A stretch of DNA of 13,305 nucleotides from Synechococcus sp. GTDB taxonomy: Bacteria; Cyanobacteriota; Cyanobacteriia; Thermostichales; PCC-7336. This document shows, piece by piece, positions 1,185-12,911 of this stretch. Under the pieces are notes generated by a model, which saw nothing but the letters and a program-made list of their open reading frames with translations, did no database searches and was not told where the DNA came from. Where the stretch lies: the NCBI GenBank assembly GCA_051439425.1, contig JBFRWD010000135.1:1-13305 (forward strand), given 5' to 3'. The position numbers and the translations under genes are program-made. Numbering within the stretch: the stretch's first letter is position 1; each line of letters starts with the position of its first letter.

Positions 1185-1403
1185 AACTCTACTTATATAG
1201 AGATGTGGTTGTGGGGTTCCCTCAAGCAAAGCACAGATTGCAGCAATATAGGCTGCACTAAAACTAGATGTTTCGATAGTAAGCAAGCCGCGAGTGGGGG
1301 GGGCGAGCTGGGACGAACTGACACCAATGTAATGTTCGGTAATCCCGCCTGACTCCAGCCTTAAAGTGCAGATTTAGCGGGAGCAACACCAAGGCTTATA
1401 AGC

Positions 1404-1409
1404 TATGAT
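1404..1409 (+). promoter_or_regulatory. Putative -10 element (TATGAT) of the ssrA promoter
   Basis: TATGAT is a 5/6 match to TATAAT, 13 nt upstream of the mature tmRNA 5' end, which fits a short RNase P-removed leader. It is preceded directly by the palindrome GCTTATAAGC (1394-1403). No clear -35. Confidence 0.4.
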
Positions 1410-1422
1410 GGATGAACTTCAC

Positions 1423-1811
1423 GGGGCTGTAACGGTTTCGACGCGTTAGCGAAAGTTCCTTTGTGATGCTGGTCGGGATTGAGCTTCTCCCGTTACCTAC
1501 AGGCTCAAGCACATTAAGTGCCAACAAAATCGTTGCTTTTTCTCGTAAACCTGCTGCAGTAGCGGTAGCTTAAGTCGAACACTTTTTCGATCGAGGACTG
1601 ATTCGGGACTCCGTTAAACGTCTCAGTCAAACCCCCAACGGATGCATCTAGCAAACTCCTCCGGTAGGTTGCTGGCCTAAGACTAAACTGGAGCATCCCA
1701 CCGTCAGGGATAAGTGACGGTTCCCGTTCCGAGGGTTAGAGGAACTAGGCCAGTGAATGAGTGAAGGGTGATTACCTAAAGCGGACACGGGTTCGACTCC
1801 CGTCAGCTCCA
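1423..1811 (+). ncRNA. ssrA: tmRNA (transfer-messenger RNA), one-piece, 389 nt
   Basis: 5' end GGGGCTGTAACGGTTTCGAC; 3' end GGACACGGGTTCGACTCCCGTCAGCTCCA with a T-loop GTTCGAC. Acceptor stem GGGGCTG/CAGCTCC has the G3:U alanine identity pair and discriminator A. An internal tag ORF is present. CCA is not encoded. Confidence 0.97.
1520..1573 (+). other. tmRNA proteolysis tag reading frame: ANKIVAFSRKPAAVAVA*
   Basis: Resume codon GCC at 1520 after TTAAGT; stop TAA at 1571-1573. Resembles cyanobacterial tags of the ANNIVxFxRxxxxVAA type. Confidence 0.92.
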
Positions 1812-1827
1812 TGCTAAAAACGTAAAA

Positions 1828-1893
1828 GCAGTCTCGCTGAAAATGTAGGGCCCCTCTTATTCCATGAGGGCAAATTTTTCATAGCGAGTTTGC
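1828..1893 (+). terminator. Long imperfect stem-loop immediately 3' of tmRNA (possible terminator or processing structure)
   Basis: GCAGTCTCGCTGAAAA (1828-1843) pairs with TTTTCATAGCGAGTTTGC (1876-1893), enclosing an inner stem GCCCCTC/GAGGGC. There is no strong U-tract afterwards. Confidence 0.4.
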
Positions 1894-2100
1894 AGCAACA
1901 ATCGTTCTCGTGGTTGAATGTGCGCATCTTGCAGGGGTACCGACAAATCACCCCTGAATGACAGACATGTGTGTCGGTATGTATTCTTGAAGCCGATATC
2001 TTACGTACCTGCGTGCCGTAGATAGAGTTATCGAAGTCACGCCCCTCGCGGAAGAGAAACTCAAGATTGTGAATGTGAGCTGTTGGGGAATACATACGCA

Positions 2101-2658
2101 ATGAGACAAAATCGGTGGAGCAGGATTCCTCGATTCACTGCAGCAAGTTTATTGTTAGTTATTGGATTCGTGACCAGTTGCAGCCAGACAGAAAACAGCG
2201 AGAGCTCAGTACCACCATCTGAATCACCATCTCCCCAATCTGAGCAGACTGAAACCGAAGCGACGCCGGTTGTTGCAAACGATCCTCTCGCTGACACGAC
2301 CTGGCGCCTCGTAGAATTCCAGTCGGCGGACGATGAAATAGGTACGCTCGAACCCGAGGACCCATCCGCCTTCATCATGCGCTTACAGAGTGACGGAACT
2401 GTAACCATGAAACTAGATTGCAATAACGCCACAGGTACCTGGTCATCCGAACCCAGTGATGACGGCCAGAGTGGTAGCTTCTCATTTGGACCGCTGGCAG
2501 TTACCCGAGCCCTTTGCGCGCCTCCCAATATCGACGAGCGCATTGCATCAGATGCCGATTTTGTTCGTTCCTACGTTTTGCAAGATGGTCGGCTCCACTT
2601 CAGCCTGATGGCTGACGGTGGCATTTATACATGGGAGCCCAACCCAGGCGAAAAGTAG
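2101..2658 (+). CDS. META (HslJ-like) domain lipoprotein
   Basis: ATG at 2101. Basic N-region, hydrophobic core and lipobox-like FVTS-C, then a Ser/Pro/Glu-rich linker. META-type motifs follow: LADTTWRLVEF, DCNNATGTW, FSFGPLAVTRALC, with the two typical cysteines. Confidence 0.85.
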   Translation: MRQNRWSRIPRFTAASLLLVIGFVTSCSQTENSESSVPPSESPSPQSEQTETEATPVVANDPLADTTWRLVEFQSADDEIGTLEPEDPSAFIMRLQSDGTVTMKLDCNNATGTWSSEPSDDGQSGSFSFGPLAVTRALCAPPNIDERIASDADFVRSYVLQDGRLHFSLMADGGIYTWEPNPGEK

Positions 2659-2817
2659 CTTCAGGCTGAAGTTGAGACTCTATCTCTGATATGGCTAGCG
2701 TAGATGCAGCCCTCAACAAGAAGCCCAAACCTACGAGGGACACTTGACTGAAAGATTTGGGGAAGACATACAGTAGAGTGCAAACCGCTATGCAGATTTC
2801 TCGAATCGACTGCCTTC

Positions 2818-2901
2818 CCTAAGATTGAGAATTTGGAAGCCTTTCGAGAGTTTGTCGCTGTTCACGGCCACCTGACCCAACAGCAAATAGTAGATTTGTG
2901 A
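2818..2901 (+). pseudogene. Short remnant of an IS630-family transposase (HTH region)
   Basis: Translates PKIENLEAFREFVAVHGHLTQQQIVDL*, matching the recalled cyanobacterial IS630 pattern PKIxDLEAFRxFxExHGxLTQxxMAxxW. The expected W codon (TGG) reads TGA. No in-frame start nearby and no DDE domain. Confidence 0.6.
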
Positions 2902-2944
2902 CCAATATTGCATCTTGTCCTTACAAAAAATAGAAGAACAGAAA

Positions 2945-3400
2945 TTAGCGGCTTAACACTTCAAAGATGGCGTCTAGCGGAGAGAGTCCTCTTTCTATGA
3001 CCGCAGAGATGGCAGGCAAATACAGATCCATGCTTTCAACGTTGCTGTAGACAACCCTCTCGATCGCGAATGCGCCCAGATCGGTACCAGGCATTTCAAT
3101 ACTCGTGCGGTAGCGAATATCGCCGTTGAGATAGTTCATCTCAAAATTCCCGAGCTGTGTCGTGTAATTGATGCGGTTCAACAACTCTACCGTTTCTGCA
3201 TAGCGTTCTGGAATCGCGCGAATAGGGCTGGAGGAATAAAACACAAACTGACGACTCTCTTCATCGGCTTGAGCCACACAGGTCCAATCGCCATTCTTTC
3301 CCTGGCATTTCATGCTGTAAGCGGTTTGACCCTCAATCTCGTGGATAGGCCAACCGTCAGCTTTGAGATAAATCGAGATAGACTCGTAAATCGTTCTCAT
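2945..3400 (-). CDS. YbjN-domain protein (type III secretion chaperone-like fold)
   Basis: 151 aa, acidic. Motifs YLKADGWP, QGKNGDWTCVA, QFVFYS, ELLNRINY...GNFEMNYLNGDIRYRTSI and YLPAISAVI...SP are typical of cyanobacterial YbjN-family proteins. Starts 5 bp after the stop of the upstream gene. Confidence 0.85.
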   Translation of the reverse strand: MRTIYESISIYLKADGWPIHEIEGQTAYSMKCQGKNGDWTCVAQADEESRQFVFYSSSPIRAIPERYAETVELLNRINYTTQLGNFEMNYLNGDIRYRTSIEMPGTDLGAFAIERVVYSNVESMDLYLPAISAVIERGLSPLDAIFEVLSR

Positions 3401-3405
3401 TGAGC

Positions 3406-5523
3406 TTATCCTTTGACCGATTTACCAAAGAAGGGGATCTTTTGACCGAAGGTCTTATCATTCTCTTTTCGTTCAAGTTTTTCCATAATAATCTTGCGTA
3501 TCACTTCCACGTCTAGAGTCTCGATGTCTTTAGCTTTCACTCCAAAGAGTTCCAGTTTCTTGATCGCAATCTTATTACCATCCTTCGCTTCGAGAATAAT
3601 CGCTGTCACTCCCCACTTGGTACTGGACTCCAACACCTTTTTAGAAGAGCCTTCAACACCAGATTCAGATTCCAGCTGAGATTCTTGAGAAAGCCCAGCG
3701 GCGTAACTAGATTCGACGGTCTCTACAACTTTCTTGGCAACCTTCAGTACCGAACCAACGGCTTTAGTGATACCGCCGTCAGCGGCAGCTACTAGCGAAC
3801 CAATTATCTTAAGGGCACTGATAATGATTTCAGCCCCCGAGCTAATGGCAAGGAATCGACTTCGCTTGGCAGTGCTTTTAAGTGCCCCAATGAGGCCAGA
3901 CTTTATAGCTTCGACCTGTTGATTGAGCTTGCCTTCTTCCACATATCGGATAACAAGCCCTGCCCCCTTAATCAGATTTTGAAAGACATTAATGACATTC
4001 GATAGAATTCCTAAAACCGGTACATTATCATCAACCATCAAATCATTGATTCGTTGCCCCAACATGGCTAGCTTTTGTTCAACCTTGAGGGCTCCTGACA
4101 GTGCTTGGTCTTCATTGTGGTTCTGTTCAGTCTCGGAGACGTCATCTTTGGTACTTTTTGAGAGTGCGGCAAATATTTCAGAAAAAGAGCTAACCACCTC
4201 TCCAATCGAGCCTACGAGATAGCCAATATCTGTATTGGTCTCGGCTAAATCTTTGCTGATAACAGACAGTTTCCCTAGCCCATCAGAGCCTCCAGCATAG
4301 ACCGATCCAGCAGTACCCACCTTATCTGTGACATCCTTAACTTGTTCAGAGGTGTCCTTACTTTTCTTCGTATTTTTTAGAGACTCTTTGAAGATTTGCA
4401 GTTTTACCTTGAGCACAACTTTTTCTTCTGGCTCTGGCGATCGCGGCCGTAGTTGAATCGGTAAGTACTGATAGGCTAACGTTGTTGCCTTGAGCGGATC
4501 GACTCCATCTTTTAGCAGATTTTTCTCTACACTCATCGCAAGTTCGACCAGTTCTGCGCTCCGCAAAACGTCATACTCGCTCACAAAGTCCATGTGAAGC
4601 GGTACAACTTTTTTGGGATAAAACTCGTTGCCAAATGTATAGTGCCAGCTTTGACTAAATCCATCCTTGAATTTTGACCAAAACGTCTTCTGCTGCTGAT
4701 TGGCTTGCTTGGCTTCAGATTCGCTTTGCTGGGGCTCTTCAGGTTGTGGAGAATCAGAGCTTATATTCTTAGTTTTTTCAATACTCGATTCAATCGATTC
4801 ATCATCTTTCCCGTTCGATTGAGTTAAAGAGGAAATATTATCTCTTTCCTCCACAACTTGATACATTAACTCTTGAAGAACTTCAATCTTTTTGGTTTCC
4901 TCTTCCGATTTACCAACAACCTCATCATTCTCGTCTCTCTTTCGGTTAGAACTTTGATACCATGCAAAAACCTTCTTCTCCAGATCGGTCAGAATACGTA
5001 ATCGCTTTGCCTTTTCATCGCACTTAACATCGCTTTCTTCTAACTTTTCATACGATTCAAGTAAGCCTAAAATATCGTCGTAACTACTTCCTCCCGAACC
5101 AATTTTAACCAGTCCCCCAAGGGCCTTAAATCCTCTGCTGAGGATATTACGTCGACTGACACCAGTCCATTCCTCCAACTTTTTACCAGTCATCAGCTTC
5201 GCTTGAAGCAAGCCGTTGGAATTGGGTTGATGCGAACCGCGATCTCCTTCCAATTCGTTTCGATTACCGGGCAGATCAATTTTCAATCGCGGTTGAATCG
5301 GATGGGGAGACTTAACGGCGCATGAGGCAAGCTTCATCTGCGAGAGACTATGCCCCACTCGCTGTTGCTGTACCGGCGTCTCTTTCTGTGTTGAGACGGT
5401 TGATTCGGAATCTAGTTTGGGTTGGGACTGAGGGGCAAAGGGTCGGGATGCTTGAAAGCTCGACTTCGCTTGAGCAGGCGATTCTGAAGAAACAGGAGTC
5501 CGCTTGAGCTTCCGAATACGCAT
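3406..5523 (-). CDS. Hypothetical 705-aa protein; putative secreted effector/toxin with DUF4157-type leader and amphipathic helical C-terminal half
   Basis: Long uninterrupted ORF; ATG at 5523 is preferred over TTG at 5529. It has a disordered S/P/Q-rich N-terminus with SRPFA, GHSLSQM, PIQPRLKIDLPGNRNELEGDR and LLQAKL motifs, a charged helical middle, and Gly/Ala/Val/Ile-rich amphipathic segments in the C-terminal half. The CDS is secure; the function is inferred. Confidence 0.75.
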   Translation of the reverse strand: MRIRKLKRTPVSSESPAQAKSSFQASRPFAPQSQPKLDSESTVSTQKETPVQQQRVGHSLSQMKLASCAVKSPHPIQPRLKIDLPGNRNELEGDRGSHQPNSNGLLQAKLMTGKKLEEWTGVSRRNILSRGFKALGGLVKIGSGGSSYDDILGLLESYEKLEESDVKCDEKAKRLRILTDLEKKVFAWYQSSNRKRDENDEVVGKSEEETKKIEVLQELMYQVVEERDNISSLTQSNGKDDESIESSIEKTKNISSDSPQPEEPQQSESEAKQANQQQKTFWSKFKDGFSQSWHYTFGNEFYPKKVVPLHMDFVSEYDVLRSAELVELAMSVEKNLLKDGVDPLKATTLAYQYLPIQLRPRSPEPEEKVVLKVKLQIFKESLKNTKKSKDTSEQVKDVTDKVGTAGSVYAGGSDGLGKLSVISKDLAETNTDIGYLVGSIGEVVSSFSEIFAALSKSTKDDVSETEQNHNEDQALSGALKVEQKLAMLGQRINDLMVDDNVPVLGILSNVINVFQNLIKGAGLVIRYVEEGKLNQQVEAIKSGLIGALKSTAKRSRFLAISSGAEIIISALKIIGSLVAAADGGITKAVGSVLKVAKKVVETVESSYAAGLSQESQLESESGVEGSSKKVLESSTKWGVTAIILEAKDGNKIAIKKLELFGVKAKDIETLDVEVIRKIIMEKLERKENDKTFGQKIPFFGKSVKG

Positions 5524-5653
5524 AGCCAACCGAGGAAAGGAAAACCAGAAATTGCTGTCGCGAAGGACGTCGCCTATCTACCAACTCAATCTTGACGACA
5601 GCTAGCCAAAAATGACTGAGTCGCATTGCACTTCATCCATAGGATATGTTTCC

Positions 5654-5693
5654 CGTTTAGCGACTTAGGAGTCCTCATCCTAAGGTCTAAATG
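5654..5693. terminator. Imperfect inverted repeat between recG and the 705-aa gene (possible recG terminator or operator)
   Basis: CGTTTAGCGACTTAGGA-GTCCTCA-TCCTAAGGTCTAAATG; core CTTAGGA/TCCTAAG is perfect. Lies ~80 bp past the recG stop. Confidence 0.35.
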
Positions 5694-5773
5694 TCACGAT
5701 TCTCGAACTCAATCATTTCACCATGTAGAGCAGAATAAAACTTAGCGCATACAGTTATGGCTTGAAGTCTTTG

Positions 5774-8218
5774 TCAAGTAAAGATCGCCCCACCCAATAG
5801 CCGGGCATATTGCTGTTTCAGACAAGAGCGAATCGCTGGATACTTCTCAAGTTTCGAGTCTTTCTCAATCAATCGTTCAGCCGCAGTCCGAGCCAGCTCT
5901 AACGTGTCTTGGTCTTCCATAAGACTTGCCAGCGCAAAATCTGGTAGCCCCGATTGCCGTGTGCCCAACACTTCCCCCGGCCCTCGCAACCGCAAATCCA
6001 TTTCAGCAATAAAGAAACCATCGTTAGACTGCTCCATCACCTTGAGTCGCTGACGAGCATTTTCCGACTTCGAATGGGTCATCAACACGCAATAGGATTG
6101 AGCCGCTCCACGTCCTACTCGACCGCGCAACTGGTGAAGTTGCGAAAGACCGAAGCGCTCTGCATGTTCGATCAGCATCAGTGATGCGTTGGGGACATCC
6201 ACACCCACTTCCACAACGGTTGTGGAAACTAGGATGTCTGTTTGACGATCGCGAAATCCCTGAATCACCGCATCTTTATCCGCAGACGACATGCGCCCGT
6301 GCAGCAGCCCTAACTTGAGATTGAGAAACACCTGTTCTTGCAAGCGCTGGTGCTCTTCTACCGCCGATCGCAAATCCAACTTCTCCGACTCCTCCACCAG
6401 CGGTAGCACGATATAGACCTGTCGCCCTTGAGCAATCTCTCGGCGTAGCAAATCATAAATCTGCGGGCGTTCGCGCGGAGATGCCACACTGGTTTTTACC
6501 GGTTTGCGTCCGGGGGGCAACTCGTCAATTTGGCTGACATCTAAGTCACCGTGCAAGGTCAGCGTTAGGGTACGGGGAATAGGCGTAGCCGTCATGGTAA
6601 GGACATCGGGGCGATCGCCTTTGGCCAACAACGCCGCCCGTTGCTGTACTCCAAACCGATGCTGTTCGTCAATAATTACCAATCCCAATCGGTTAAACAC
6701 CACTGGCTTTTGAATCAGGGCGTGGGTGCCCACCAGTAACGGTAGCTCTCCAGTCTCTAGTTGCCGCAAGATTTCCCTGCGTTTTTTCGTCGGAGTCGAA
6801 CCGGTTAACAGCTCCACTGGCAGATGTAGTTGCCCGAACCAATCGACTAATTTGCGGTAGTGCTGTTCGGCTAGCACCTCTGTCGGGGCCATCAATGCCC
6901 CTTGCCACCCTGACTGGATAGCCGCCAGCAGCGCCACTATTCCGACTACCGTTTTGCCAGATCCCACATCCCCCTGGACAAGACGGTTCATAGGGGCTGG
7001 CGATCGCAGATCCTCCAAAATATCGGTCACCACCCGCTCTTGGGCTCCAGTCAAGTCGAAAGGTAGCAACTTGTAAAACAGATCGACTAACTCCCCTTGC
7101 TCGGGGGTATAGCGCGGGGTTTCCAGCTCCTGCACTCGGTTGCGTTCTCGCCTCAACAGTAGCCCTAGTTGGAGGTAGAAAAATTCGTCGAACACTAGGC
7201 GACGGCGAGCATCTACCAGTACATCGGAGGAATTGGGGAAATGAATGTTAGCGATCGCCTGCTTCAACTCCAAAAGTCCCAGCGACTCTCGCAGCTTGAG
7301 TGGTAGAGGATCGTCCAGCAGCGCTACGGCAGGAAGCGAAGCGTTGACCGCCCGCCGAACCAAATCCGCATTGATACCTTCAGTGAGGGGATAAACAGGC
7401 AGGATTTTGCCGATCTTGAGAGAGCGAATGTCGGCACTTTCGTCCGCCAGGACTTCAATTTCGGGATTGTCTAGAGTGAGGCCATACTTCCCTTTTTTGA
7501 CCAAGCCGCTGGCCGCAACAATCGTGCCGCGCGGATACTGGCGCTTGGTCTTCTCCTGCCAGCCACGATTGCTAAACTGCTTGCCCGCATAAAACCGACT
7601 CAGCATCATCAAACCGCTGTCGTCAGCCACTTTGAGGCTAAAGATGGTCAGACTTTTGTTGCGTGGGCTGGTAAAACAAGTGCAACTGCGAACCGTTCCC
7701 ACAACGGTAATCGTTTCTCCGGGGGTGGCATTTCGAATGGTGGTTTGGGCGGAATAATTGATGTGGTCGCGGGGGAAGTAGTAAAGGGCGTCTTCAACAG
7801 TGACCAACCCCAGTAGAGCAAGCTTTGATGCCGATCGCGGCCCGATTCCTTTTAGAAACTGTAGAGGACGATCCAACGACAAATCGGTTTTGCCGAAGTA
7901 AGTCAGCTTAGGCTTCTGCTCTGGAATGGGCTCTTGTTGTTTCTTCACCCGATAGAGCCAGCGGCGAGTCTCAGCCACCAAATGCTGGCGATCGCTCAAA
8001 GCCAAGTCTGGATAATCTTTGTATCTCTGTCCCAGATCGCTCCACTTGCGACGATCTTCGGTGTCAAGCTCCAAATCCGCAGGGGGATCGGCCTGCAGCC
8101 AGTCACTCAAAAATTCTGAAAAACGAGACTGCCGCCCTTGCAAGTCGCTAAACCCGCGATCGGCTTCGATCGCTAAAGCTTTGTGAACTCTTTGGAGATG
8201 GGGGGATAGATCCGCCAC
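5774..8218 (-). CDS. recG: ATP-dependent DNA helicase RecG
   Basis: 814 aa, GTG start. LKGIGP and the wedge/OB region, ARRRLVFDEFF, MNRLVQGDVGSGKT (motif I), MAPTEVLAEQH, IIDEQHRFGV (motif II), MTATPIPRTL, QLHQLRGRVGRG and the TRG motif DLRLRGPGEVLGTRQSG. Confidence 0.99.
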   Translation of the reverse strand: MADLSPHLQRVHKALAIEADRGFSDLQGRQSRFSEFLSDWLQADPPADLELDTEDRRKWSDLGQRYKDYPDLALSDRQHLVAETRRWLYRVKKQQEPIPEQKPKLTYFGKTDLSLDRPLQFLKGIGPRSASKLALLGLVTVEDALYYFPRDHINYSAQTTIRNATPGETITVVGTVRSCTCFTSPRNKSLTIFSLKVADDSGLMMLSRFYAGKQFSNRGWQEKTKRQYPRGTIVAASGLVKKGKYGLTLDNPEIEVLADESADIRSLKIGKILPVYPLTEGINADLVRRAVNASLPAVALLDDPLPLKLRESLGLLELKQAIANIHFPNSSDVLVDARRRLVFDEFFYLQLGLLLRRERNRVQELETPRYTPEQGELVDLFYKLLPFDLTGAQERVVTDILEDLRSPAPMNRLVQGDVGSGKTVVGIVALLAAIQSGWQGALMAPTEVLAEQHYRKLVDWFGQLHLPVELLTGSTPTKKRREILRQLETGELPLLVGTHALIQKPVVFNRLGLVIIDEQHRFGVQQRAALLAKGDRPDVLTMTATPIPRTLTLTLHGDLDVSQIDELPPGRKPVKTSVASPRERPQIYDLLRREIAQGRQVYIVLPLVEESEKLDLRSAVEEHQRLQEQVFLNLKLGLLHGRMSSADKDAVIQGFRDRQTDILVSTTVVEVGVDVPNASLMLIEHAERFGLSQLHQLRGRVGRGAAQSYCVLMTHSKSENARQRLKVMEQSNDGFFIAEMDLRLRGPGEVLGTRQSGLPDFALASLMEDQDTLELARTAAERLIEKDSKLEKYPAIRSCLKQQYARLLGGAIFT

Positions 8219-8412: not shown

Positions 8413-9093
8413 TCAGTAGTCGTAATCTTCCACAAGACTGGCTTGCAATGTGTAGCCCACATTTATATCAGCAGAACCATCCACAAATGTGAGATGCTGC
8501 TCGCTGCTTTCAACCGACATCAAACCCGACGCGAGAACGGGCTCGAATAAGCTGTTCATTTCAATCCCAGCCTCCGTTACTACGTACACGCTTTGAGTGG
8601 GAGGGGGCGGGGGGACGTGAATGCAAGCTCCTACGTAGGGAACAAGCAAAAATTCGGTAACTCGATGGTTTTCGGAAAATTCTAGGGGAAGGGCATAACC
8701 AGGAATAGCAACTGATTGAGAGTCTAGAGCATCAACCATCGTGTTATCAGCGATCTCGATGCGGCGATCGATTTCTTCCTGTGCCGCCACGATGCCGTCA
8801 ATATCTATCCCATCTGCCTTCAGCGCCTCGACGTCAAAAGCAAATTGTTCGCTTAAAATCTCCGCCTCTTCAGGATGAAGGGGTGGCCCCTGTTTCTGGC
8901 GCTGGATCATCCAGTAGACAAACCCCATCTTGGACGCTTGTTCTTGACTTAGCTCTAGAAACGGGTCTGTAAACTCAACTTGCGGTGCCAAGTCTTCCCA
9001 GCCCAATTGCCTAACATTTGCCTCCAACGCAGGCATGAATAGCAGAGAGATAACAACAGCCAGTGCAACGGATATGAGTTTTAAGTACTTCAT
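8413..9093 (-). CDS. DUF3299 domain exported protein (PA4066-like, zinc operon accessory protein)
   Basis: Probable start ATG at 9093 (MKYLKLISVALAVVISLLF... signal peptide), not 9174. Motifs LGWEDLAP and IPGYALPLE...EFLLVPYVGACIHVPPPPPTQ are diagnostic. Last gene of the four-gene cluster. Confidence 0.9.
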   Translation of the reverse strand: MKYLKLISVALAVVISLLFMPALEANVRQLGWEDLAPQVEFTDPFLELSQEQASKMGFVYWMIQRQKQGPPLHPEEAEILSEQFAFDVEALKADGIDIDGIVAAQEEIDRRIEIADNTMVDALDSQSVAIPGYALPLEFSENHRVTEFLLVPYVGACIHVPPPPPTQSVYVVTEAGIEMNSLFEPVLASGLMSVESSEQHLTFVDGSADINVGYTLQASLVEDYDY

Positions 9094-9275
9094 GAGTAGA
9101 GAGAGGTAAAACACCGTTACAGGGTGGAGCGGCCAAAGAGCAAAGAGATGCCCACAGCATGGAGGCTTTAGCAATCTGGGGTAAGAGCTTGAGTTTGCTG
9201 ATGACTCAAGACCTGGATTTGCAAGGGTAAGTTATCAGGGAACTCACCATAATGGATTGCCAATCTCCATAGAGC

Positions 9276-10538
9276 CTACTGCTTGATGGACATTCCATCG
9301 ACCAGCGAGTAGCGGTAGCTGAGATAACCGGGTACCATCCCGATCGCTGTCCCAGCAGAGCATATCGCTGCTATCAAAACTAGCTCGTAACTCGATAATG
9401 CTCCAATGGCGATCGCCAATCCGAATCTAGACAGCACAATCGGCTGCGCAATCCACAGTCCTCCATAAAGAAGTAGAATTCCCGTCGCCACACCTGCAAG
9501 CGTCAACGCACAGGCTTCTCCCACAATTAGTCCAAAAATGTGAACAGGGCGGGCTCCCACCGATCGCAAAATCGCCATCTCCCGACGCCGTTCGTTCAAA
9601 CTGGTCAGCAACGCCACCAACATCCCGGACAGTCCGACCACCACCACAAACCCCGACACAACTGTCAGCGCCCGCTCCGCCACCCCAATCACCTGCCATA
9701 GCGACTGCAGCGTTACTCCCGGCAAAATGGCCAGTAATGCCTCAGATCGATAGGTATTCACGTATCGCTGCACCTCAAACGCCGCCACCCGAGAATTCAA
9801 CCCCACGAGTGCAGCAGTCACCGCCTGCGGTGTTAGCGCCACTCGTTCAGCGACCTCAGCAGATATTTCCTGACCGGGACGAGGGGGAGCACCGTCTTGC
9901 CAGTCAATATGAATAGCCTCGATACCCTCCAGACTGACATGCACCGTCTGGTCAACAGGCGTCCCCGTTTGTGCCAAGATCCCTACCACTTGAAAGGGCT
10001 TGTCATCATGCTCAATTAAATTTACGGCACCAGCACCGTGAGCAATGATAATCTCTTCGCCAAGCTCGTAACCCAACTGCTTAGCAACCTCAGAGCCCAA
10101 CACCGCATCGTAAACTCCGTCAAACCTTTCCCCTTCTGCCAGTACCAGAGGGCGATCGCGCGAGTAGCGGTAGCGATCGAAATACTCCTGAGTGGTTCCC
10201 ATCACCCGGTAGCCGCGATGGGAATCTCCTAACGAAATAGGCACTAGCCACTCGACATTGGGATGATCTTGCAACTCTTGAATGGTTTCCCACGAGACAT
10301 TGTTAGTAGCGAAACCAATGTGAAATACCGAATAGAGCAATAACTGCACCGATCCAGTACGCGCCCCCACAATCAAGTCAGTGCCCGAAATCGTGCTGGT
10401 AAAGCTGTTCTTCGCTTCCGAATTAATTCGCTGCACCCCCAGCAACATCGTCACACTAAGGCCAATCGAAAAAGCCGTCAGCCCTGCCGTAAACTTGCGA
10501 TTCCAAACGCTCTTGAGCGCCAGCTTTACGATTGACAT
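9276..10538 (-). CDS. ABC transporter permease, FtsX/MacB type (PA4065-like)
   Basis: 420 aa: N-terminal TM helix, large periplasmic domain (TISGTDLIVGARTGSVQLLLYSVFHIG, PISLGDSHRGYRVMGT), then ERRREMAILRSVGA with C-terminal TM helices. Confidence 0.93.
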   Translation of the reverse strand: MSIVKLALKSVWNRKFTAGLTAFSIGLSVTMLLGVQRINSEAKNSFTSTISGTDLIVGARTGSVQLLLYSVFHIGFATNNVSWETIQELQDHPNVEWLVPISLGDSHRGYRVMGTTQEYFDRYRYSRDRPLVLAEGERFDGVYDAVLGSEVAKQLGYELGEEIIIAHGAGAVNLIEHDDKPFQVVGILAQTGTPVDQTVHVSLEGIEAIHIDWQDGAPPRPGQEISAEVAERVALTPQAVTAALVGLNSRVAAFEVQRYVNTYRSEALLAILPGVTLQSLWQVIGVAERALTVVSGFVVVVGLSGMLVALLTSLNERRREMAILRSVGARPVHIFGLIVGEACALTLAGVATGILLLYGGLWIAQPIVLSRFGLAIAIGALSSYELVLIAAICSAGTAIGMVPGYLSYRYSLVDGMSIKQ

Positions 10539-10540
10539 GC

Positions 10541-11281
10541 CTACGCTCCTTGAGTCTGGTGCCCAACTCCAACACGGTTGATATCGCCAAGGTGAATGGT
10601 GCGGTCAAACAGGTGGGCCAAAGTGCGATCGTGACTGACAAACACGACAGTGCTACCTTCTCGTCGACATTCCGCAAACAAAAGCTTGATAAACGCTTCT
10701 CGGCGATCGAAGTCGAGTGACGACGTTGGTTCGTCCGCAATAACGATATCCGGATTGCCCATTAATGCTCTAGCAGCCGCCACCCGCTGCTGCTGCCCCA
10801 CGCTTAAATTGCTGACCGGCTGATTGTGACTGACCAGCTCGGCCATATCCAGGTGTTTGAGCAGTCGAATTGCTTCTTTTTCGACCGAGCCTGACTGAGT
10901 CACAGCCCGATCTCGGCGGCGCTTAGAAAATTGACAAGGCAAGGTTACATTCTCTACCACCGATAAGTAGGGCAGAAGATTGAACTGCTGGAAGATGAAC
11001 CCGATGGAATCTGCCCGAACGAGATCGCGCTCCGCACCACTCTTCTGTTCCAGTTGGCAACCCAGAACAGTAACTGTGCCGGAACGAGGCACCACCACAC
11101 CTGCCAAGAGGTTCAATAAAGTTGTTTTGCCGCTGCCGCTCGGCCCTTCTATAAAGACCGTCGTCCCCCTGTTTATATCGAGGCGATCGATATCCAGAAC
11201 AGGTAGACGATCGCGATGCCAACCATAGGTCAATTCCCGCAAGCAAACCGCAATATCGACAGAATCGTTGCTCAGAGCCAC
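10541..11281 (-). CDS. ABC transporter ATP-binding protein, LolD/MacB-like (PA4064-like)
   Basis: Walker A GPSGSGKT, Q-loop FQQFNLL, signature LSVGQQQRV, Walker B IVIADEPT, H-loop VSHD. Its stop is 2 bp before the permease start. Confidence 0.95.
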   Translation of the reverse strand: MALSNDSVDIAVCLRELTYGWHRDRLPVLDIDRLDINRGTTVFIEGPSGSGKTTLLNLLAGVVVPRSGTVTVLGCQLEQKSGAERDLVRADSIGFIFQQFNLLPYLSVVENVTLPCQFSKRRRDRAVTQSGSVEKEAIRLLKHLDMAELVSHNQPVSNLSVGQQQRVAAARALMGNPDIVIADEPTSSLDFDRREAFIKLLFAECRREGSTVVFVSHDRTLAHLFDRTIHLGDINRVGVGHQTQGA

Positions 11282-11340
11282 CTCCCGTGCACAGACTCAG
11301 TTCGATAACGCTTCCCAAATTTCATTTAACAGCCCAGCGA

Positions 11341-12027
11341 TTACCAAGTCAGCGTCGCATCTGCCGGAGTCAAGTCTGCCCCTACCTGTCCTGAGTCGGT
11401 TAGTGCTTGAACTTCGATTTGTTCAATGCCAGGGAAGGCATCAAATAAAGCAACCTCAACCTGGTTCAAGGCTTCAGGGTTGCCGCATTCGAATTCATAG
11501 CTAGCGGAAAACTCGCTATGAACGTCCTCGGCGTGTTCATCCCCATGTTCGTGGTCGTGGTCGTGCTCGCCTTCATGCTCTGCGTGTTCATCCCCATGGT
11601 CGTGGTCGTGGTCGTGCTCGTCTTCATGCTCTGCGTGCTCATCTCCGTGCTCGTGGTCGTGCTCGCCTTCGTGGCTCGCTTCAATGTCGGACTCAACCAC
11701 TGCACTGGCAAGGCTGCAACTAGCAGCAGTCGGAAGTCCAAACAGACTGTCACCTGCCTCCAGCACTTCAATTGCATCATCTATGGCGGCTTCCTGTTCA
11801 GCAGTGTTGGGAGCATGCTCGAATCCAACAATGTTTACCGCCGGACTAACCATTTCTACATAAAAGCGACTGCCTTCTACTGCCGCATTCAGTTCAACAA
11901 CCCCGTGAACATGCCCTCCCTCTTGCCGGATCTCCTCATCTGACGATTGCGCCCTAACAGCATTAGTCCCAAACCCAGCTACCGCCAATCCTGAAACAAT
12001 TGCCACAAATCCAGCCAGTCGCTTCAT
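11341..12027 (-). CDS. zrgA: DUF2796 / ZrgA-family periplasmic zinc-binding protein (PA4063-like)
   Basis: Probable start ATG at 12027 after AGAGGTGG, with signal peptide MKRLAGFVAIVSGLAVAGFGTNAVRA. Motifs HVHGVVELN, SPAVNIVGFEHAP, a His/Asp/Glu-rich loop, HSEFSASYEFEC and LFDAFPG. The track's N-terminal extension to 12282 is unlikely to be real. Confidence 0.9.
   Translation of the reverse strand: MKRLAGFVAIVSGLAVAGFGTNAVRAQSSDEEIRQEGGHVHGVVELNAAVEGSRFYVEMVSPAVNIVGFEHAPNTAEQEAAIDDAIEVLEAGDSLFGLPTAASCSLASAVVESDIEASHEGEHDHEHGDEHAEHEDEHDHDHDHGDEHAEHEGEHDHDHEHGDEHAEDVHSEFSASYEFECGNPEALNQVEVALFDAFPGIEQIEVQALTDSGQVGADLTPADATLTW
11528..11673 (-). repeat. Intragenic tandem repeat (two 51-bp units plus one shorter unit) encoding the His-rich loop of ZrgA
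   Basis: GCGTG(T/C)TCATC units start at 11531, 11582 and 11633 (period 51). Encodes HEGEHDHEHGDEHAE-HEDEHDHDHDHGDEHAE-HEGEHDHDHEHGDEHAE (17 His). Confidence 0.92.
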
Positions 12028-12116
12028 CACCACACCACCTCTGACAATTAGTTTCAGGAATCGCAGAGCCGGATTATTCCTTAGCCCACAGGCAATACGT
12101 ATATCCGCCGTCTGCA

Positions 12117-12137
12117 CGAGAATGATTCTAATTATCA
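12117..12137. promoter_or_regulatory. Putative Zur (FurB)/Fur-family operator, two overlapping 7-1-7 boxes
   Basis: TGATTCTAATTATCA (12123-12137) matches 12 of 14 defined positions of the cyanobacterial Zur consensus TGATAATNATTATCA. It overlaps CGAGAATGATTCTAA (12117-12131). Lies 90-110 bp upstream of zrgA and covers a minus-strand TAGAAT -10-like hexamer. Confidence 0.7.
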
Positions 12138-12311
12138 AAAATTGGATCGTCAAATTCCAGCTACACAATTCCGCAGTTGCCCGGAAGCTTCCAACGATCG
12201 CCAACAACTCCGTCTTCCGACCCTCATTATCCATACGGATAACCGGCACTGTGCTGCCAGACTTCTCAGACACCACGTACACTGAAAATAATCAGCATCG
12301 AAGCAATATCC

Positions 12312-12911
12312 ATGATCCCCACAGTTATCGAACAATCCGCCCGGGGCGAACGGGCTTTCGATATATACTCCCGCTTGCTGCGAGAGCGCATTATATTCTT
12401 GGGCACCGATGTCTCTGACGCCAGTGCAAACTTAATTGTTGCCCAGATGCTCTATCTCGAATCCGACGACCCCGAGAAAGACATCTTCTTGTACATCAAC
12501 TCTCCTGGTGGTTCTGTCTACTCCGGTATGGCAATTTACGACACCATGCAACACATTCAACCGGATGTTTCTACGATCTGCGTGGGTTTGGCAGCATCGA
12601 TGGGAGCATTCCTACTTGCTGCTGGAGCTAAAGGCAAACGCATGGCGCTCCCCCACGCTCGCATCATGATTCACCAACCACTCGGTGGTGCTCAAGGCCA
12701 AGCCACCGACATCGAGATTCAAGCGAAAGAGATTCTCTACATCAAAGACAATCTCAACCAGCTGTTGGTGGATCACACCGGTCAGCCACTAGAACGCATC
12801 GAAGAAGATACCGATCGCGACTTTTTCATGTCTCCTGACGAAGCTCGCGACTACGGCCTGGTAGACAGGGTGGTTACCAAGCGACCCAAACCCGAACTCA
12901 CAGCTGTTTAA
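12312..12911 (+). CDS. clpP: ATP-dependent Clp protease proteolytic subunit (cyanobacterial ClpP1 type)
   Basis: 199 aa: [40 protein letters not shown], catalytic Ser in GLAASMGA, His in RIMIHQP, Asp in DRDFFM. Confidence 0.98.

Follow-up and report, generated by a model that had tools for sequence, protein, structure and literature searches.

A cargo gene without the DUF4157 core and its YbjN-family neighbour as a candidate orphan module of a contractile injection system in Synechococcus sp.

The stretch of DNA analysed here (hereafter the window) is a complete contig of 13,305 bases (JBFRWD010000135.1; contig C135 of the host genome, G000) from the cyanobacterium Synechococcus sp. It harbours two co-oriented genes, one encoding a 705-amino acid (aa) protein that we interpret as a cargo of contractile injection systems (CISs) and one encoding a protein of the YbjN family (Table 1). 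A preliminary description, drawn up from the sequence alone, had placed these genes 5 bp apart between the transfer-messenger RNA (tmRNA) gene and recG, recognized the small one as YbjN, considered the large one locally AT-rich and seen no secretion machinery in the window, and all of these points were borne out. Both open reading frames (ORFs) are present on the minus strand, with AGGA 9 nt ahead of the ATG of YbjN, and an alternative TTG start at 5529 would give a cargo of 707 aa, two residues longer. The YbjN protein (151 aa; isoelectric point (pI) 4.64) matches PF10722 at 32.7 bits (cut-off 22) over residues 6-131. The GC content of the cargo gene is 0.447, compared with 0.536 for recG and 0.514 for the genome, and a value as low is reached in 4.8% of 4508 genome windows of equal length; at third codon positions it is 0.433 for the cargo gene versus 0.574 for recG, with YbjN being host-like (0.559). 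A Pfam scan of the ORFs found no CIS or secretion gene in the whole window.

Table 1. Features of the window, with the cargo–YbjN pair first and its surroundings last
Feature	Position	Strand	Remark
Cargo gene	3406..5523	minus	705-aa ORF (stop included), ATG start
YbjN-family gene	2945..3400	minus	151-aa ORF, PF10722
Spacer, cargo stop codon to YbjN start codon	3401..3405	minus	5 bp
Leader (aa 1-106), presumed loading signal	5206..5523	minus	disordered, basic; motif RPFAPQ..GHSL..MK..PIQxKLxI
Junction where P0004 has ~190 extra residues including the DUF4157/eCIS core	5224..5241 (~aa 95-100)	minus	BLASTP and alignment
Four-helix bundle (aa 108-238), like the membrane-localisation domain (MLD)/4HBM, weak assignment	4810..5202	minus	VIA-align on predicted model
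C-terminal helical domain (aa 433-705)	3409..4227	minus	alignments A1 and A5, models
Variable stretch (META-domain gene, YbjN, cargo)	1813..5770	.	3.95 kb, missing from same-genus genome G003
META-domain gene	within 1813..5770		in the variable stretch, with YbjN and cargo
tmRNA gene	1423..1814	plus	ARAGORN and Rfam RF00023, 98 bits; left boundary of variable stretch
recG	5774..8218	minus	flanks the pair

No Pfam family was detected in the 705-aa protein at E≤0.01, nor even at E≤10. In a collection of 5.8 billion proteins its sole scoring relative, besides the query itself, was P0004, a protein of 890 aa that carries PF13699 (DUF4157, the core of extracellular CIS (eCIS) effectors). By BLASTP, aa 98-705 of the window protein align with aa 290-890 of P0004 at 75% identity, and aa 1-99 with aa 1-101 at 47% identity; the ~190 residues of P0004 that hold the HExxH-bearing core are missing from the window protein, with the frame preserved, according to both the BLASTP segments and the alignment. 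As the preliminary description had supposed, the large protein does not belong to a housekeeping family, having no Pfam match and a single close homologue that carries the eCIS core domain. An exhaustive search of representative sequences returned 37 proteins at E≤1e-3 (query included), and a Pfam scan of the other 36 together with P0004 found PF13699 in 10 of these 37 homologues. Certain members of the family, for example P0007 and P0009, and likewise the cargos of loci L034 and L035, are without the core yet retain a leader. The DUF4157 domain is optional in its effector class. As judged from its sequence, the 705-aa protein would be a core-less variant among the cargos of the DUF4157 class of CIS effectors, that is, a natural derivative of a cargo with N-terminal domain (NTD), DUF4157 and C-terminal domain (CTD) from which the DUF4157 core was probably removed in frame.

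The AlphaFold2 model of the cargo (mean predicted local distance difference test (pLDDT) score of 71) is disordered over aa 1-106 (pLDDT<50) and helical over the remainder. The disordered part, a leader with a pI of 10.4, is homologous to the leaders of other cargos: its motif occurs in exactly three other proteins of the host genome, one on contig C24 and two in the CIS locus of contig C33, where both occupy cargo positions, and in two same-genus genomes (G001 and G002) the leader is carried by other DUF4157 proteins. The DUF4157 protein encoded on contig C71 is without the shared leader. Residues 50-61 of the leader (window 5340-5375; 'RVGHSLSQMKL') align with 'RFGHDFSQVRVH', the motif of the first strand in the DUF4157 core of this C71 protein (region of the core at L037:1899-2228, minus strand), and a degenerate version of the beginning of that core may be present within the leader.

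The host genome harbours at least two CIS loci, and its CIS genes are distributed over four contigs. C71 encodes a sheath, a tube, a T4-type baseplate protein, Pvc16_N, an AAA+ ATPase with WHD and the DUF4157 protein just mentioned (608 aa), while C33, at a contig end, encodes a sheath, three tube proteins, a RelA/SpoT-domain protein, a 546-aa protein and a 448-aa DUF4157 protein; Pvc16_N plus an AAA+WHD ATPase are found on C150, and a CIS tube plus a VgrG-like spike on C153. The machinery that the preliminary description had presumed to lie elsewhere is therefore present in the same genome (sheath, tube, Pvc16_N, AAA+WHD and spike genes), as are two DUF4157 genes, all on contigs other than that of the window. 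The window cargo itself does not lie within about ten genes of a CIS operon; its homologues in loci L012 and L013 lie inside one.

The published architecture of CIS cargo comprises an N-terminal loading region that is disordered, a DUF4157 domain that may be missing and a C-terminal domain that varies. The N-terminal regions of cargos are alike within one system, not between systems, according to the available text of a 2026 preprint on such cargos (10.64898/2026.05.27.728243). Since the leaders are shared and N-terminal regions are system-specific, the window cargo would be loaded by the CIS of the C33 locus. In cargo of AlgoCIS, deletion of the NTD abolishes loading and deletion of DUF4157 leaves it intact (10.64898/2026.05.27.728243, same text). 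Because its DUF4157 core is missing, the window protein would be a natural counterpart of these engineered ΔDUF4157 mutants. With the DUF4157 eCIS toxins Cgo1 and Cgo2 of AlgoCIS (Algoriphagus machipongonensis) it has in common a disordered N-terminal loading region and a variable C-terminal effector domain, and its nearest homologue exhibits the full NTD-DUF4157-CTD layout; it differs from that class in being core-less, located away from a CIS operon and accompanied by a dedicated YbjN neighbour. Another cyanobacterium, Anabaena, has putative cargos of this effector class for its thylakoid-anchored CIS in Alr3311 and Alr3312, yet their genes lie beside the CIS cluster and retain DUF4157 (PMC8894136).

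Several further features of the host CIS loci and leader-bearing genes were observed. The leader protein on C24 (218 aa; L038:4027-4683, minus strand) ends in a barnase-type ribonuclease (RNase; PF00545) and is directly followed by a barstar gene (PF01337; L038:3431-3946, minus strand), the two forming a second orphan cargo cassette of the genome. In C33 the RelA/SpoT-domain gene (347 aa; L036:14488-15531, minus strand) is small alarmone synthetase-like, with the tube genes on one side of it and the leader-bearing cargo genes on the other; its product may be a toxic alarmone-synthetase effector. On C153 an ORF of 2078 aa without a Pfam family (L040:7871-14107, plus strand) is located directly upstream of the CIS tube gene, near the VgrG-like spike.

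The cargo and YbjN genes are part of a stretch that varies between strains. In G003, a genome of the same genus whose RecG is 97% identical, recG and the tmRNA gene are 64 bp apart, and homology between the window and G003 stops exactly at the tmRNA 3′ end (~1812) and restarts at the recG stop codon (~5770). Because homology breaks and resumes at these positions, the intervening 3.95 kb were taken as a strain-variable stretch at a classic island site. No direct repeat of the tmRNA 3′ end resembling an att site was found, and none of the ORFs scanned against Pfam in this stretch matched an integrase. The cargo body is rare, as the profile of its C-terminal part (A5) had no match in 400 further genomes from the host's phylum and matched two of 400 others from the phylum of G446. 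The GC-poverty of the cargo gene and the absence of the cargo body from the 400 phylum genomes would fit horizontal acquisition.

The missing core, the contig free of CIS genes and the absence of the stretch from a same-genus genome could together mean that the locus is a decaying remnant, in which the core and the place in a CIS operon have been lost, the cargo is no longer loaded and YbjN, if active, acts as a general stress protein; the occurrence of YbjN relatives in housekeeping neighbourhoods (see below) would agree with this. We consider such decay improbable. The 705-aa frame is intact, its leader still matches the leaders of the C33-locus cargos, the core-less proteins P0007, P0009 and those of L034 and L035 have likewise kept theirs, and in the available text of 10.64898/2026.05.27.728243 DUF4157 is dispensable for AlgoCIS loading. 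Moreover, a sequencing run from a different study (X2) covers window 1398-5709 at roughly 92-96% likeness, and, with one X2 contig spanning 5074-5551 gap-free, a second strain carries the same DUF4157-less junction. Among the 33 differences between the two strains that are listed between 4111 and 4825 in the cargo gene (242 further ones lie outside that list), 29 fall on third codon positions; the cargo ORF is under purifying selection and is not a wreck.

Outside the host's phylum, a PF10722 gene encoding 150-159 aa lies immediately downstream of the homologue of the cargo C-terminal part in six of the six loci fetched (L012, L013, L014, L015, L034 and L035, from an Anaerolineales genome and metagenome contigs). 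Since these loci form three closely related pairs, they represent three lineages in addition to the window. The cargo–YbjN pair of L012 and L013 is positioned inside a CIS operon, directly ahead of Pvc16, sheath and tube genes, with an AAA ATPase gene upstream in L013. The cargo in these operons is flanked by two different YbjN genes, since just ahead of it there is a second YbjN paralogue (L012:410-862 and L013:4387-4839, both plus strand), which belongs to the other branch of the tree. The nearest relative of the window YbjN is P0041 (79% identity), for which a single contig of 9137 bases is recorded, likewise for P0004, and this suggests that P0004 and P0041 are neighbours.

YbjN proteins from these loci show 36-79% identity to that of the window and share 26 invariant columns (alignment A6), while the cargo homologues, apart from P0004, are 16-36% identical; YbjN is thus better conserved than the cargo. 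In the tree, the window YbjN pairs with that of L014 (support 100/99) within a group of six rows (82/74) that further includes L012, L034, L055 and one long-branch row. The gene preceding YbjN in L055 encodes a 905-aa protein that shares only the leader-like N-terminus with the cargo family.

Within the host's phylum, the A6 profile identified the YbjN subfamily in 24 of 401 sampled genomes and 20 of 156 genera (host counted). One locus each was drawn from 20 of the 23 other genomes, with those of the weakest matches (G120, G359 and G255) left out; in G359 and G255 even the best match is interrupted by in-frame stops. Eight of these 20 cyanobacterial loci have an adjacent ORF with a DUF4157 core (271-2020 aa), which is upstream on the same strand in seven and downstream in L086. 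In L105, a cargo-like ORF of 727 aa is followed by YbjN and then by an AAA+WHD ATPase gene; in L104, ORFs of 1045 and 160 aa precede a long form of YbjN; L092 stops inside the YbjN ORF. Furthermore, G001 and G002 encode proteins of 409-432 aa that end in a YbjN domain and are flanked by DUF4157 cargos on one side and AAA ATPases on the other; none of these cargos matches the C-terminal profile of the window protein. Since the neighbouring cargos differ in their C-terminal domains, the link of YbjN appears to be to the cargo class and not to a single toxin domain. The YbjN subfamily thus accompanies CIS cargo with several different effector domains and also occurs beyond CIS contexts.

A 'longer' search for fused forms of YbjN gave nothing at E≤1e-8 among 227 candidates, which is weak evidence, and the genome search did find long forms; for the N-terminal extension of one such form, ESM Atlas yielded no usable match. 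In L097 (G326:C67, 3527-6067, minus strand) an 846-aa protein combines an N-terminal YbjN domain with an FtsK/SpoIIIE ATPase and adjoins a second YbjN protein, an AAA_16 protein and a Ser/Thr kinase-trypsin fusion. Contig C2 of G359 has five matches to the YbjN subfamily, each interrupted by in-frame stop codons, for the most part TAG; these matches are maybe decayed copies.

Directly behind the leader, aa 108-238 of the cargo model form a four-helix bundle, which VIA-align superposed on 5uqk (N-terminal four-helix bundle of a large glucosylating toxin; Z 11.5, root-mean-square deviation (rmsd) 2.4, 86 aa, 19%), 5xn7 (membrane-localisation domain of a MARTX effector; Z 10.5, rmsd 3.8, 95 aa, 22%) and 2vk9 (C. 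novyi alpha-toxin; Z 10.5, rmsd 3.3, 88 aa, 11%). Pfam MLD (PF11647) matched three of 39 homologues, each below the 35-bit cut-off (best E 2.5e-4, 21.5 bits), and the family profile searched against the PDB found these same chains at E 0.7-1.3. Because each signal alone is within chance for helical bundles, the assignment was treated as a lead: aa 108-238 of the model weakly resemble toxin membrane-localisation domains, and such a bundle, if it is one, hints at a eukaryotic target. As in MARTX effectors and large glucosylating toxins, the predicted bundle lies at the N-terminal end of the folded effector part; unlike them, the window protein has no Pfam match, with homologues reaching MLD only below the cut-off.

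Conservation within the family is highest over the C-terminal 285 residues (alignments A1 and A5), which were modelled as a long bundle of up-and-down topology with a small helical domain attached (pLDDT 83-97) and in which the most hydrophobic helix spans aa 557-585 (KD19 maximum of 1.76 at aa 563-581). Foldseek against the PDB gave no match at E≤0.001 for either the whole model or the C-terminal model. In ESM Atlas the C-terminal part matched unnamed clusters (0.90-0.91), an RTX haemolysin N-terminal cluster (0.85) and SseF (0.79), all of which serve as leads only. The C-terminal bundle would be the effector and is perhaps membrane-active, and a membrane-directed action of the cargo is our guess.

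If that bundle were an antibacterial (membrane-active) toxin delivered by the CIS, YbjN could be its cognate immunity protein that protects producer and kin. The small gene is immediately downstream of the large one, is probably translationally coupled to it and takes the same position as barstar after the leader-RNase of C24; moreover, YbjN is found in six of the six loci that have this C-terminal domain, the YbjNs of four such loci fall in one tree group (the one supported at 82/74), and some eCIS effectors have experimentally shown immunity genes (PMC8213781, in its available text). We nevertheless regard this explanation, the main alternative to the one we favour, as rather unlikely. The same YbjN subfamily stands beside DUF4157 cargos with unrelated C-terminal domains and also after the 905-aa protein of L055, which has no more than a leader in common with the cargo family. 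The comparison with the polymorphic toxin–immunity cassette of C24, which has the same leader and the same gene order, points the same way, in that barstar is tied to one toxin fold, whereas the YbjN subfamily accompanies several unrelated C-terminal domains. Immunity proteins evolve fast, yet YbjN is more conserved than the cargo. Furthermore, the effector table of PMC11297309 does not count neighbouring YbjN genes as immunity domains (column = 0 in those rows), and the available texts of PMC13466201 and PMC5398634 present the fold family of YbjN as secretion chaperones. The MLD-like bundle, if real, would point to a eukaryotic target, against which no immunity would be needed.

YbjN has surfaced in published tables. 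In PMC8213781 (supplementary file 4), pfam10722 is enriched in eCIS operons (odds ratio 6.09; false discovery rate 1.2e-5; 14 occurrences in 2 phyla; 'Cloud'). Supplementary file 7 of PMC11297309 mentions YbjN 12 times; it places YbjN one gene from DUF4157 effectors in Microcoleus, Moorea, Pleurocapsa, Synechococcus, Calothrix and Solimonas, and a machine-learning classifier scored several of the YbjN proteins in it as eCIS-associated toxins (0.53-0.91). In the literature searched, no paper names both 'YbjN' and 'contractile injection', and YbjN is absent from the main texts of the eCIS papers listed there. In this literature, the partnership of YbjN with CIS cargo is documented only as an uninterpreted statistical enrichment in supplementary tables. 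The suggestion of the preliminary description that such modules form an undescribed class was nonetheless too strong, as the cargo appears to fall in the known DUF4157 class and YbjN is already in the tables of two papers. From the chaperone side, a 2026 review names YbjN as the member with the widest distribution in the clan of type III chaperones, though an 'understudied' one, mentions a Chlamydia class I chaperone annotated as YbjN and describes how SycO masks the membrane-localisation domain of YopO (PMC13466201, in its available text).

The classifier scores would suit a role of YbjN as an injected effector itself, or as a structural accessory of the particle, instead of a cytoplasmic helper. 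This we hold to be very improbable, as the scores rest on a 'cloud domain' and on neighbourhood features, not on a loading signal (PMC11297309), and the acidic window YbjN (pI 4.64) begins directly with its folded domain, PF10722 starting at residue 6, without a disordered basic leader.

The interpretation that we favour, and to which we assign an even chance, is that the two genes constitute an orphan cargo module for a CIS encoded elsewhere, with YbjN as the cargo chaperone. The cargo would be built, in order, of the leader, an MLD-like four-helix bundle, a helical middle part and the conserved C-terminal effector bundle, and the leader would direct it into the CIS tube. YbjN, with the fold of type III secretion class I chaperones and made from the same transcript, would bind the cargo in the producer cell and keep its membrane-seeking or hydrophobic parts soluble and inactive; it would then pass the cargo to a Pvc15-like AAA+ ATPase, which would remove YbjN and insert the cargo into the tube. 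A chaperone or adaptor is favoured by the fold family of YbjN, its small size and acidity, its tie to the cargo class and its proximity to Pvc15-like ATPases, and further by its conservation above that of the cargo and by the possible MLD-like bundle, which would need masking in the producer. Like a class I chaperone, YbjN is small, acidic and encoded beside its putative client (in 6 of 6 loci, and next to DUF4157 genes in 8 of 20). The preliminary description had proposed a stand-alone cassette of a cargo and a dedicated chaperone (or immunity protein) for a system elsewhere and had anticipated a conserved adjacency; the adjacency found, the host machinery and the protein family support such a cassette, and it is the chaperone among its two options that we infer. 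Complex prediction with the full cargo (alignment A4) and YbjN (alignment A6) returned a score of 0.00 in a run without controls, which is uninformative either way.

Several observations weigh against the chaperone interpretation. The window protein is without the eCIS core domain and on a contig free of CIS genes, and in the same genome a true immunity protein, barstar, follows a cargo with the leader and an RNase. The window YbjN clade co-segregates with the cargo C-terminal family in four of its six rows, a pattern that also suits immunity. The YbjN subfamily is not exclusive to CISs, with 9 of the 20 cyanobacterial loci having unrelated neighbours; in four of the nine, which make up a single clade, YbjN follows a 200-aa ORF, and three of these four adjoin phosphoenolpyruvate carboxylase. 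As to the cargo body, a Pfam MLD match is absent from the window protein at E≤10, the MLD likeness (Z 10.5-11.5) is within the chance range for helical bundles, and VIA-align of the C-terminal model retrieved only generic four-helix bundles (Z≤13.7).

The proposed module can be set beside the class I pairs of type III secretion systems (T3SSs), such as SycO-YopO, SycE-YopE and CesT-Tir. There, as here, the client gene has as its neighbour a gene for a small acidic protein of this fold clan. A T3SS class I chaperone delivers its client to an ATPase that unfolds the client. It also masks the membrane-localisation region of the client (PMC13466201, in its available text). The differences are that the machine considered here is a phage-tail-like CIS with an AAA+ ATPase of Pvc15 type, that the YbjN gene lies downstream of its client and belongs to a separate Pfam family, PF10722, and that binding of the client is what we infer.

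The remaining genes of the window (a GCS2-like ligase gene, the META-domain gene, a zinc-uptake-like cluster and clpP) are unrelated to secretion. The cluster, at 8413-12282 on the minus strand, encodes a ZrgA-family protein, an ABC ATPase, an FtsX/MacB permease and a DUF3299 protein and resembles a ZrgABCDE-type zinc-uptake system; clpP (12312-12911) is divergent from it. Just downstream of the YbjN stop codon, a repeat of ~95 bases (2817-2911) is present in three genome copies (C135, C26 and C177; 86-87% identity) and in several metagenome contigs of differing contexts, and its depth in run X1 is 71 compared with 14 for its flanks. A scan for promoters and terminators gave counts no higher than the shuffled expectation, and no RNA data containing the locus are listed among the public sequencing runs.

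The field has yet to explain how producer cells keep CIS cargo both harmless and loadable. Both eCIS surveys, in their available text, describe most eCIS effectors as being without immunity genes and the role of DUF4157 as unknown (PMC8213781, PMC11297309). A conserved partner of chaperone fold that travels with the cargo would be a directly testable answer. The locus appears to be a natural DUF4157-less cargo that has kept the leader only, in line with engineered cargos, for which the leader is enough for loading (10.64898/2026.05.27.728243, in its available text). A more general proposition, which we put forward tentatively as possible, is that YbjN-family proteins are the missing cargo chaperones of CISs: the chaperone fold of T3SSs would have been recruited independently by phage-tail-like injectors and would keep membrane-seeking effectors soluble for a Pvc15-type AAA+ unfoldase; joined to its cargo in a two-gene cassette, it could connect to a resident CIS from any genomic position, and across phyla. 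Cassettes of this kind could serve programmable protein delivery. If the proposition is true, the YbjN family would gain a concrete, client-bound function, and YbjN would maybe be the first dedicated helper for CIS cargo.

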